Shown here piece after piece: positions 4,703 through 9,364 of a stretch of DNA of 12,506 bases. A program made the translations under genes and the position numbers. The notes beneath the pieces are model-generated. The model saw only the letters and a program-made list of their open reading frames with translations. It made no database searches and had not been told where the DNA came from. Every line of letters begins with the position of its first letter. The stretch's first letter is position 1. Source of the DNA: Candidatus Helarchaeota archaeon (GTDB lineage: Archaea > Asgardarchaeota > Lokiarchaeia > Helarchaeales > RDOG01); the NCBI GenBank assembly GCA_029838215.1, contig JALGVI010000084.1, forward strand, positions 1 to 12,506, given 5' to 3'.

Positions 4703-5002
4703 TCATTGTATGACGATGTTAGATTCAGAAATGCCGATATCTTTTAAAAATTGACGGACCACGTTCCTATGATCTCCTTGCAATTCTATGTGATCCTTCT
4801 TTTTGGTACCGCCACAGGCACATTTTGCTTTTAATTGATTGACAAAACTTTTCATATCGGACTTTTCGATGCCTTCAATAAGCGTTACCGTGCGGCCGTA
4901 TTTTCGTCGTTCCACCTTGACCTTTATCACGTTCTCTTCCTTATCGATTTCTTCGCACATGCATAAATCTTTTGGAAGTGAGCATTTAGGGCAAATCTCT
5001 AT
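4703..5002 (-). CDS. sui1: Translation initiation factor aIF1 (SUI1/eIF1 family); true start probably the near-cognate codon ATA at 5002, not ATG 4960
   Basis: SUI1 motifs KVERRKYGRTVTLIEG, LKAKCACGGT and IELQGDHR. The in-frame extension upstream of ATG 4960 encodes (V)IEICPKCSLPKDLC, the typical archaeal aIF1 N-terminal Cys segment, and is bounded by in-frame TAA at 5008-5006. Gene identity is very secure; the start position is inferred. Confidence 0.92.
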   Translation of the reverse strand: MEICPKCSLPKDLCMCEEIDKEENVIKVKVERRKYGRTVTLIEGIEKSDMKSFVNQLKAKCACGGTKKKDHIELQGDHRNVVRQFLKDIGISESNIVIQ

Positions 5003-5011
5003 AACTTATCT

Positions 5012-5016
5012 CTCCT
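5012..5016 (-). promoter_or_regulatory. Shine-Dalgarno site of aIF1 (AGGAG)
   Basis: The minus strand reads AAGGAGAGATAAGTT-ATA. There are 9 nt from the last G of GGAG to ATA, matching the 8-9 nt spacing at ATG starts 1228, 4238, 5171 and 9364. Confidence 0.7.
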
Positions 5017-5086
5017 TTATCCGTAATACATCAGCTAGATCGAGTGTTCTATTATAACTACTGAAATATTCTAAACGTTTCTCTTT

Positions 5087-5100
5087 TATATAAATTTCTC
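5087..5100 (-). promoter_or_regulatory. Archaeal BRE-TATA promoter for aIF1
   Basis: The minus strand reads GAGAAA-TTTATATA (purine-rich BRE plus TATA box). Predicted transcription start is around 5060-5065, giving a leadered mRNA that includes the SD. Confidence 0.6.
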
Positions 5101-7541: not shown

Positions 7542-8078
7542 TTAATGATTTGAACCCATTTCAACAAGCATCTTTGCCAATTTTTTAAATGCTTCTTCTA
7601 CATTCATTGAGGTTTTTGCTGAGGTTTCAATAAAAGTCATGCTTAATTCTTCAGCCAATTTTTTCCCTTCTTCAGAAGTTACAATTGGATCTAAATCGTT
7701 CTTATTTGCAACGAGCAATTGCTTGAATTCCGTATCAATTGAAGACACAATTTCATCTCTCCATTTCCGGATTGCCTCAAAGCTATCACGCCTTGTGACG
7801 TCATAGACGTACACCACACCACTTGCAGTTCCGTAGAATTGCCGTCTTGTTCGCTCGAACAAGTCTTGTCCCGCAATATCCCAAATTATCAAATTAATTT
7901 CAGTGCCACTTTCTTCCGTATACGCCTTCCTTAATACGTTGGCACCCAGCGTTGCTTTATAATCATGTTCAAATGAATTTTTTACGAAACGAGTAATTAG
8001 ACTCGTTTTTCCGACAGCATATTCGCCTACAACGCAGACTTTGAATTTGTACTTCCCTTGCATGTTTACCGAATCCAA
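7542..8078 (-). CDS. Rab-like small GTPase (Ras superfamily); start may be ATG 8063
   Basis: G1 GEYAVGKT, G2 T, G3 WDIAGQ, G4 NKND, G5 TSAK. No C-terminal Cys prenylation motif. Confidence 0.93.
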   Translation of the reverse strand: MDSVNMQGKYKFKVCVVGEYAVGKTSLITRFVKNSFEHDYKATLGANVLRKAYTEESGTEINLIIWDIAGQDLFERTRRQFYGTASGVVYVYDVTRRDSFEAIRKWRDEIVSSIDTEFKQLLVANKNDLDPIVTSEEGKKLAEELSMTFIETSAKTSMNVEEAFKKLAKMLVEMGSNH

Positions 8079-8170: not shown

Positions 8171-9364
8171 TTATCTGCCAATATCTTTCGGGGTCAGGAT
8201 GTTCCCACAAGCAGGGCATTCGGGTTCAAAACCCTTTATTAATAACTTAATTTCACGTTCTTCAATAATTTTTTTGCAAATGGGACAATGTGGTTTTAGG
8301 TCATACATGATTTGATGTTCATCAATTTCTTCGTAGTAAGTCGGCGTTTCAACTGCAAGATCTTCCTTATGGGGAATGATGTAAGTATTCCAACGTTCAA
8401 CAGAAATCTCGGGAAAAACATATCGGATCTGAAAATTCTTTTTAGTTACAAGCAGTAATTCATTTTCCTTTAGCCATTCAAGAACCTGATACATGGCACC
8501 TGCACTGAGTCCGGTAACTTCTATTACTTGTTCTTCCGTTAAATCTCGTTTCTTTAGTTCTTCAACCAATATTCTTGCGTTTTCTAGGGTTATTTCATCG
8601 GGAAGTGAGATTTCCTTCAGATATTCGGCAGGAAGATAAAGATATTCTTCTTCTTCGAAGAATTCTTGAATTCCCGAGCCAGAAATGTCGACATCTCGTT
8701 GAGGGTCGCCCGCCATTTCAACCGTTGGTTGATCCATTTCTTTATGTGGTTCTACGGGAACTGGTGAGGGTTCTTGAGATTGAATTGCAGACGGCACCAC
8801 GCTGAGTTTTTCCCTTTTTTCGGGAGAAATCATTGATTGTTCACCTGTCGCAGCCTTTTCGAGCTTCAAAACGAGATCGATTCCACTCGGTTCAGTTTTC
8901 TTAGCGGGTTTTTTCGGCATATCTTGTTTTACAATGAAAGTTGGCTTCACTTCTGCTACGGGTAGTTGGCTTTTTGTTGCCTCTAGCTCGGTGACTAATG
9001 TTGCGACATCAGATTTCTGCACGGTTCCAGTGGTACCTGTAGGGGCGTTCTCCTTTATATTTTCTAATGCAGAACTCATATTGATTGCGGCGTGCGTTTC
9101 TTCTATCGGTTTTGCTACTTCAATCTTCATTCGACTAACTCTTGGAGGAGCTACTTTTTTAGAGGGGATCGCTCGAGGCTCTTGCTGAGCTACAGGTTTC
9201 ACCCCAATGCCTTGTTTAATTGCAACATATTCAGGATCTAAGATTATGTCACGCATGAATTTTAATTTTGGACCTTTTACGTCACGTTGTTCTTCAGGTA
9301 ATGTTTGAATGATTTGTTTCATTTGATTTATCATTTTTACTAACGGTTCATTGATGTTATTCAT
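8171..9364 (-). CDS. Hypothetical protein: N-terminal helical part, long low-complexity linker, winged helix-turn-helix and C-terminal Zn ribbon
   Basis: Strong SD AGGAGG at 9377-9372. P/E/K/A/T/V-rich middle; wHTH-like ARILVEELKKRDLTEEQVIEVTGLSAGAMYQVLEWLKENELL; CPIC-x19-CPAC at the C-terminus. Confidence 0.8.
   Translation of the reverse strand: MNNINEPLVKMINQMKQIIQTLPEEQRDVKGPKLKFMRDIILDPEYVAIKQGIGVKPVAQQEPRAIPSKKVAPPRVSRMKIEVAKPIEETHAAINMSSALENIKENAPTGTTGTVQKSDVATLVTELEATKSQLPVAEVKPTFIVKQDMPKKPAKKTEPSGIDLVLKLEKAATGEQSMISPEKREKLSVVPSAIQSQEPSPVPVEPHKEMDQPTVEMAGDPQRDVDISGSGIQEFFEEEEYLYLPAEYLKEISLPDEITLENARILVEELKKRDLTEEQVIEVTGLSAGAMYQVLEWLKENELLLVTKKNFQIRYVFPEISVERWNTYIIPHKEDLAVETPTYYEEIDEHQIMYDLKPHCPICKKIIEEREIKLLIKGFEPECPACGNILTPKDIGR

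Follow-up and report, generated by a model that had tools for sequence, protein, structure and literature searches.

The gene for the initiation factor aIF1 (SUI1) in the window, by which the whole analysed stretch of 12,506 nt is meant, very probably begins at a near-cognate codon, most likely the ATA at 5002, as judged from the comparison of homologous loci. Such a start, placed behind a conserved Shine-Dalgarno (SD) sequence, had been proposed in a first reading of the window from its letters alone (below, the sequence-only reading), and the comparison of relatives lends this proposal strong support. The case goes beyond a short stretch that happens to be open, since a conserved coding sequence with four invariant cysteines precedes the canonical starts and the ATA itself is conserved. 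Autoregulation of a fidelity factor through the poor start of its own gene is textbook knowledge for bacteria (IF3) and eukaryotes (eIF1).

The aIF1 gene and its start region

The gene lies on the minus strand, and its start region has the following features (window positions).

4703 to 5002, minus strand: aIF1 (SUI1) coding sequence as proposed, from ATA 5002-5000 to TGA 4705-4703, 99 codons
4955 to 4993, minus strand: zinc-knuckle segment C4-P-K-C7...C14-M-C16, in which ATG 4960-4958 codes for the residue between Cys14 and Cys16
5000 to 5002, minus strand: proposed near-cognate start ATA (AUA), invariant in all six f1-type sequences
5006 to 5008, minus strand: in-frame TAA, which closes the frame two codons upstream of ATA
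5010 to 5016, minus strand: SD sequence AGGAGAG, 7 nt upstream of ATA and complementary to the 16S 3' end of the genome, GGATCACCTCCT
5017 to 5031, minus strand: upstream ORF (uORF) of four codons, ATG TAT TAC GGA TAA, which stops 1 nt before the SD
5084 to 5094, minus strand: TATA-like box TTTATATAAAA, pointing to a leadered mRNA whose 5' UTR would measure roughly 55-60 nt

Read along this strand, AGGAGAG (5016-5010) is followed by ATAAGTT, ATA (5002-5000), GAG and ATT (4996-4994), and then by the codons TGC CCT AAA TGC TCA CTT CCA AAA GAT TTA TGC, after which come ATG (4960-4958) and TGC GAA GAA. In frame, no ATG, GTG or TTG is present between the TAA at 5008-5006 and ATG 4960. The sequence-only reading had described this TAA, the lack of a canonical start up to ATG 4960 and an AGGAG at 5016-5012, and all three were recovered from the minus strand. 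The only form of the ORF listed mechanically for the gene is the one of 85 aa that starts at ATG 4960. This ATG had been said to be without an SD, and no GGAG-like motif was found before it. Over the whole genome, the distance between a 5-mer SD and an ATG start peaks at 6-9 nt. The SD spacing of aIF1 had also been likened to that of other genes in the window, at 8-9 nt; the likeness stood roughly, with GAGGA, GAGGT or AGGAGG at 6-7 nt before ATG.

With ATA as the first codon, the product would have 99 residues, which, as had been claimed, fits an archaeal aIF1 (typical length 102 aa) with a complete zinc knuckle. It matches the Pfam family PF01253 (SUI1) with 71.5 bits against a cut-off of 25.5 over residues 23-91, and the NCBIfam profile NF002096 with 127.5 bits against a cut-off of 98, its residues 2-98 corresponding to profile positions 3-101 of 102. 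Aligned with the aIF1 of Methanocaldococcus jannaschii (4MO0, also present in the 30S complexes 5JB3 and 5JBH), it gives an E value of 2.4e-28 over residues 3-99, against positions 3-101 of the chain; E values of the matches with eIF1 structures in the PDB are about 1e-7 to 1e-8. The product thus has the SUI1 alpha/beta domain and full-length similarity to a structurally characterised aIF1, and only a start upstream of ATG 4960 gives it the archaeal length (about 100 aa) together with the N-terminal zinc knuckle (CxxC...CxC). It is taken here to be a start-codon fidelity factor, for which binding at the 30S P site and rejection of non-AUG codons are assumed by homology. One SUI1 copy is present in the genome of this Helarchaeales-type Asgard archaeon (3.6 Mb, 94.3 % complete, 6.2 % contamination). 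The profiles NF002096 and TIGR01158 give archaeal aIF1 (4706-5002, minus strand) the name "stress response translation initiation inhibitor YciH", a bacterial name that is a misleading artefact.

The neighbours of aIF1 are a convergent thioredoxin gene and a divergent gene for a B12-binding radical SAM enzyme (plus strand, from 5123), and this arrangement is common to the relatives. The public proteins closest to the aIF1 product are labelled Helarchaeales or Helarchaeota. Elsewhere in the window, a Ras-family small GTPase (Pfam Ras, 162.8 bits; 7545-8078, minus strand), a eukaryote-like protein typical of Asgard archaea, adjoins an ORF of 397 aa for which no Pfam match was obtained (8174-9364, minus strand). 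Two OsmC-like genes form a tandem pair on the plus strand (1228-2165), downstream of a gene with a DnaJ domain (585-1121).

The aIF1 mRNA is probably leadered, because a TATA-like GAAATTTATATAAAA is kept some 80-95 nt upstream of ATA in the window, in L092 and in L093a; the transcription start site was placed by the usual archaeal TATA spacing. The initiation region is unstructured, folding worse than 197 of 200 shuffled sequences (z = +1.87), and no Rfam family was matched in the window. A structured leader or a riboswitch was rejected on these grounds, and no other device is evident in the leader. Frameshifting or readthrough from an upstream ORF was also discarded: the upstream gene is divergent, and the sole upstream ATG opens the uORF of four codons.

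Conservation of the ATA codon in close relatives

Six sequences of the f1 type, 55-92 % identical, were compared: those of the window, L092 (92 % identical to it), L093a, L093b, L003 and L094. L092 and L094 are from MAGs in NCBI, L093a and L093b are tandem copies on a Logan contig, and L003 is from genome G001 of the same family. ATA is found in every one of them, 6-9 nt behind GGAG[AT]G, and this motif is the only one that they share in the 42 nt upstream of aIF1. Over these 42 nt, ungapped identity with the window is at most about 50 % (6 to 21 of 42 positions). In codons 2-15, by comparison of the window with the other five sequences, 34 codon differences are synonymous only and 6 are nonsynonymous. 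As judged from these differences, the codons upstream of ATG 4960 must be under purifying selection at the protein level, and so be translated. An in-frame TAG or TAA closes the frame upstream of aIF1 in the relatives as well, at a similar or more distant position.

Across an alignment of 15 diverse aIF1 proteins, no change is seen in the four cysteines of the knuckle (C5, C8, C15 and C17 in alignment numbering; C4, C7, C14 and C16 when counted from ATA). The residue coded by ATG 4960 is Val, Ile or Arg in the other aligned aIF1 proteins, and Gln is also found among the relatives. In the sequence-only reading, an ATG at the position of ATA 5002-5000 in all close orthologues was to count against the proposal, and a near-cognate codon kept by relatives, above all with switching among such codons, in its favour. 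The close orthologues lack the ATG, and relatives keep a near-cognate codon, with switching among ATA, ATT, ATC and CTG.

A near-cognate start of aIF1 is already implicit in the database annotation of a few MAGs. NCBI starts the gene of L092 and the G001-type protein P0005 at ATA, and that of L094 at ATT, the Ile codon of I-C-P (L094:1495-1503). The latter start is probably two codons short, as an ATA is located 9 nt behind AGGAGAG in L094, at the position homologous to the ATA of the window. Other gene callers give forms of 72-90 aa that are cut at the N terminus (for example P0003, P0006 and P0035). On the Logan contig of SRR31155650, the two tandem SUI1 genes (L093:1459-1758 and 1816-2115) have ATA behind GGAGAG or GGAGTGA and were shortened by the gene caller to 85 and 72 aa.

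Other candidates for the start

Among the alternatives to initiation at ATA 5002, a start two codons downstream, at ATT 4996-4994, is the one that survives best, and it is still improbable. It had been named as an alternative in the sequence-only reading; the codon is indeed near-cognate, but it is poorly spaced, lying 13 nt after AGGAGAG and outside the 6-9 nt peak of the genome. Nearly every locus surveyed has an Ile codon (ATT, ATA or ATC) at I-C-P, and it is the start that NCBI chose for L094. This conservation does not call for a role in initiation, however, since aIF1 proteins that start at ATG also keep the Ile as an amino acid. Moreover, a codon upstream of it, ATA here and ATT, ATC or CTG elsewhere, is conserved at the proper distance from an SD in every lineage, and the NCBIfam profile expects residues ahead of the Ile. 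The second alternative of the sequence-only reading, GTT 5005, was rejected: with two mismatches to AUG it is not near-cognate, and relatives have GTC, AAA, AAT, GAT or ACA at this position.

Initiation at AUA might also follow from termination and reinitiation after the uORF at 5031-5017, instead of being guided directly by the SD. L092 and L003 also have short ATG uORFs, and in all three sequences, the window included, the uORF stops at the SD or overlaps ATA. Their length, frame and stop position vary among the relatives, however, and L093a, L093b and L094 have no ATG uORF at all. The uORF ATG is not preceded by an SD, and about one ATG is expected by chance in an AT-rich leader of 60 nt. 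The uORF is thus probably fortuitous, and reinitiation is very unlikely.

A start at ATG 4960, with a protein of 85 aa and the upstream 14 codons as untranslated leader, would use the sole canonical start and agree with the choice of the gene callers, both here and in relatives (P0003, P0006, P0035). It is nevertheless highly implausible: the protein would lose three of its four invariant zinc-binding cysteines, relatives have V, I or Q in place of the Met, the ATG lacks an SD, and the codons before it bear the mark of selection on protein sequence described above. An assembly or sequencing error that turned ATG into ATA would take only one base in a MAG of 94.3 % completeness and 6.2 % contamination, but it can practically be dismissed: five further sequences, drawn from four other independent assemblies, have the same ATA, and dozens more assemblies have near-cognate codons at aIF1. 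Initiation at ATA 5002 is thus the preferred reading in what follows.

aIF1 starts in Asgard and other archaea

A total of 90 Asgard aIF1 loci was surveyed, consisting of 30 relatives and, from across the phylum, one or two loci for each genus. An ATG, GTG or TTG was scored as a canonical start if it lay in frame after the upstream stop and before the first Cys. Such a start is lacking in 40 of the 90 loci, where the codons are ATT, ATC, ATA or CTG. The GTDB class of the window accounts for 28 of these (out of 38 loci), and 12 more are located outside it.

Within this class, families f1 and f2 have ATA, family f3 has TTG and family f5 has ATA or TTG. Among the primary copies of the large family f4, the 22 that do not belong to genus g9 all have ATT, or ATC in g13, at six to seven codons from the Cys. 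Genus g9 of the same family has ATA seven codons before the Cys and was scored as "canonical possible" because of an in-frame GTG 11 codons before it. Three paralogous second copies in the class have a perfect GAGGTGA(T), followed after 7-8 nt by ATT or ATA. The GTG within the conserved GGTTGTGA was considered as a start for f4 and rejected, as it is out of frame; the block is read as an SD because the corresponding block of the paralogues is a perfect GAGGTGA.

The 12 loci outside the class belong to several other lineages. In six genera of the Thor-type family f10, CAGGAG is followed after 10 nt by CTG, exactly at the position where sister genera have GTG. Toggling between GTG and CTG at one aligned aIF1 codon is thus observed in this family (L038-L052), one genus of which (L048) appears to use ATT. 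Family f7 has CTG, and families f12 and f18 have ATA 9 nt after AGGAGG. In one f17 genome, the ATG of the sisters is lost and an ATA two codons downstream is retained. The other Asgard families start aIF1 at ATG or GTG. In the Jordarchaeia, L161 has ATA where its sister L127 has an ATG start; an in-frame ATG GTG is present farther upstream in L161, inside an apparent equivalent of the SD block.

A scan across GTDB, its sample skewed by the search pattern and by the many Bathyarchaeia, gave a canonical start at most 8 codons from the Cys in all of 80 further loci (73 ATG, 6 GTG and 1 TTG). Besides Bathyarchaeia, which make up most of it, the sample has Thermoplasmata, Methanofastidiosa, Methanomethylicia, Thermoprotei and a few Asgard loci. 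A near-cognate aIF1 start is therefore not general to archaea.

AUH starts on other genes of this genome

Genes for other initiation factors were compared in the same set. In 30 of the 30 relatives, aIF2beta has its ATG at the conserved M-D-L-x-D-Y. For aIF1A, a canonical start is available in 30 of 30, and 25 of 29 relatives have ATG at M-[AP]-K-K.

At the place where relatives show ATG or TTG and then [AP]-K-K-K, the aIF1A gene of this genome (G000:C160:48018-48446, minus strand; L175/L275) reads ATA ATA CCA AAA AAG behind GGAAGTG. Its start is ambiguous, because an ATG lies in frame nine codons upstream. Possibly, and in this genome only, aIF1A is thus another initiation factor started at AUH.

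The extent of the Pfam domain calls for an AUH start in at least four genes of this genome besides aIF1.

G000 C47, 11850 to 13028, plus strand: AcnX, ATT; Pfam profile position 2 aligns to residue 2 after ATT
G000 C117, 109 to 978, plus strand: MoaA-like radical SAM enzyme, ATA; the first canonical start falls inside the domain
G000 C106, 12545 to 13033, plus strand: PadR regulator, ATC; the Pfam domain begins upstream of the first canonical start
G000 C87, 27790 to 28074, minus strand: eL33/L35Ae, ATC; the Pfam domain begins upstream of the first canonical start

In each of the four, a strong SD is located 4-6 nt ahead of the AUH codon. The ATT of AcnX is kept in three close orthologues, and the ATC of eL33 is found in this genome only, the start being canonical in 29 of 29 relatives. 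For a PRTase, an HMGL-like gene and an Aconitase_C gene, Pfam did not decide whether an AUH start is needed.

A genome-wide count of AUH codons behind a 6-mer SD, limited to those that precede the first canonical start and have none close by, gave 23 where about 14 are expected (odds ratio 1.65, p 0.04). Cruder counts of AUH behind an SD are confounded by codons in the spacers of real ATG starts, and the refined excess is small. AUH starts are thus not unique to aIF1 in this genome, but they are rare. Set against aIF2beta, aIF1A and eL33, the conserved weak start is specific to the gene of the fidelity factor, while a few unrelated genes also have AUH. In a search with aragorn for a dedicated initiator tRNA that reads AUH, neither a tRNA-Met nor a tRNA with the anticodon UAU was detected in the MAG, which yielded only 18-21 tRNAs.

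A possible feedback of aIF1 on its own synthesis

On the leadered aIF1 mRNA, the strong SD AGGAGAG would place the 30S subunit 7 nt upstream of AUA, where the initiator Met-tRNA would start despite the mismatch at the third base, giving the protein of 99 residues with its complete N-terminal zinc knuckle. aIF1 would in turn destabilise initiation complexes on non-AUG codons. Since its own start would be one of these, an excess of free aIF1 would lower the synthesis of aIF1 and a shortage would raise it, a homeostatic negative feedback. The same setting of stringency would also tune the few other genes of the genome that start at AUH. By analogy with known systems and in view of published aIF1 biochemistry, we consider it probable, without great confidence, that aIF1 represses initiation at its own AUA; SD-guided initiation at AUA and homeostatic feedback, taken together as one mechanism, are favoured only slightly.

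The aIF1 of Sulfolobus solfataricus allows the 30S-aIF2-Met-tRNAi complex to bind an AUG but not an AUU mRNA in vitro (PMC4705826, PMC6237735), and this rejection of AUU complexes speaks in favour of the feedback. So do the specificity of the weak start to aIF1, as compared with aIF2beta and aIF1A in the same genomes, and the recurrence of weak aIF1 starts in several Asgard lineages. As in loops of the infC/eIF1 type, a suboptimal start is evolutionarily conserved on the gene of a fidelity factor. The case is weakened by the other genes that start at AUH here and by the use of ATG in most aIF1 genes outside the Asgard archaea. In addition, the aIF1 proteins of Pyrococcus abyssi and S. solfataricus also stimulate mRNA binding and translation (PMC6237735), which makes the sign and size of a feedback uncertain.

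It is also possible, though we are inclined to doubt it, that the AUA start is real but sets only a low constitutive rate, AUH codons being an ordinary class of weak start with no meaningful feedback. AUH behind a strong SD may indeed be an accepted class of start, because at least four other genes need it and AcnX keeps its ATT across orthologues; and elsewhere in archaea aIF1 itself has ATG (73 of the 80 GTDB-wide loci). Against this, AUH is rare in the genome, with an excess of only about 10 genes, and aIF1 keeps a near-cognate or weak start over a whole class and gains CTG or ATA in several other lineages, whereas aIF2beta and aIF1A are without such starts and the AUH start of eL33 is evolutionarily labile. 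The feedback would, moreover, be automatic if aIF1 discriminates against AUH at all, as that of S. solfataricus does.

Negative feedback at the AUA of aIF1 could be part of something larger. A tentative extension would be an Asgard circuit of start-codon stringency, in which aIF1 limits itself through its AUH or CUG start and its level sets the expression of a small regulon of genes started at AUH. Here, this putative regulon would consist of AcnX, the MoaA-like enzyme, the PadR regulator, eL33 and possibly aIF1A. We regard such a circuit as speculative.

Relation to known systems

That autoregulation of aIF1 through its start codon is undescribed for archaea had been suggested in the sequence-only reading, and no description was encountered. 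In the searchable literature, which includes the main aIF1 papers and reviews (among them Monestier 2018, Schmitt 2019 and 2020, Asano 2014 and a 2026 Asgard review) and from which subscription journals are mostly absent, so that silence is no proof, nothing was found on autoregulation of aIF1 or on archaeal aIF1 genes that start at a codon other than AUG. If the feedback is real, autoregulation of a fidelity factor at its own start site would extend to all three domains, and homeostatic control of stringency of the eIF1 type would predate scanning and be present in the archaeal relatives of eukaryotes. Standard gene callers shorten such aIF1 proteins or miss their starts, and the same holds for other genes that start at AUH; as it is, public databases hold aIF1 forms of 85-90 aa without the zinc knuckle.

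The AUH starts of AcnX, the MoaA-like enzyme, the PadR regulator and eL33, taken as non-regulatory, resemble that of aIF1 in having a strong SD followed after 5-9 nt by ATA, ATT or ATC. Alternative starts are also listed in NCBI table 11, and pcnB of E. coli starts at AUU. Unlike these genes, aIF1 encodes a fidelity factor, and its weak start spans a class and other lineages, while that of eL33 is confined to one genome.

The closest parallel in bacteria is infC, the gene of IF3, for which an AUU start with translational autocontrol has been described (Butler et al. 1987, as cited in PMC4705826). Each of the two genes encodes a fidelity factor and has, behind an SD, a near-cognate start of the AUH type that is kept over a large clade, and a low level of the factor lowers stringency and hence gives more factor, as is predicted here for aIF1. 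IF3 and aIF1 are unrelated proteins with different folds, however. The feedback at infC has been shown genetically, whereas that at aIF1 is one that we infer, and the aIF1 feature is patchy in archaea, being found in Asgard lineages and not in most other archaea sampled.

In eukaryotes, the gene of eIF1 (SUI1) has an AUG in a poor Kozak context and is autoregulated negatively (Ivanov et al. 2010; Martin-Marcos et al. 2011, as cited in PMC4705826 and PMC6237735). aIF1 is a homologue of eIF1, and its gene likewise has a suboptimal start against which the encoded factor is expected to discriminate. Unlike that of eIF1, which is a cognate AUG in a weak context reached by scanning, the start codon proposed for aIF1 is itself non-cognate and would be positioned by the SD.
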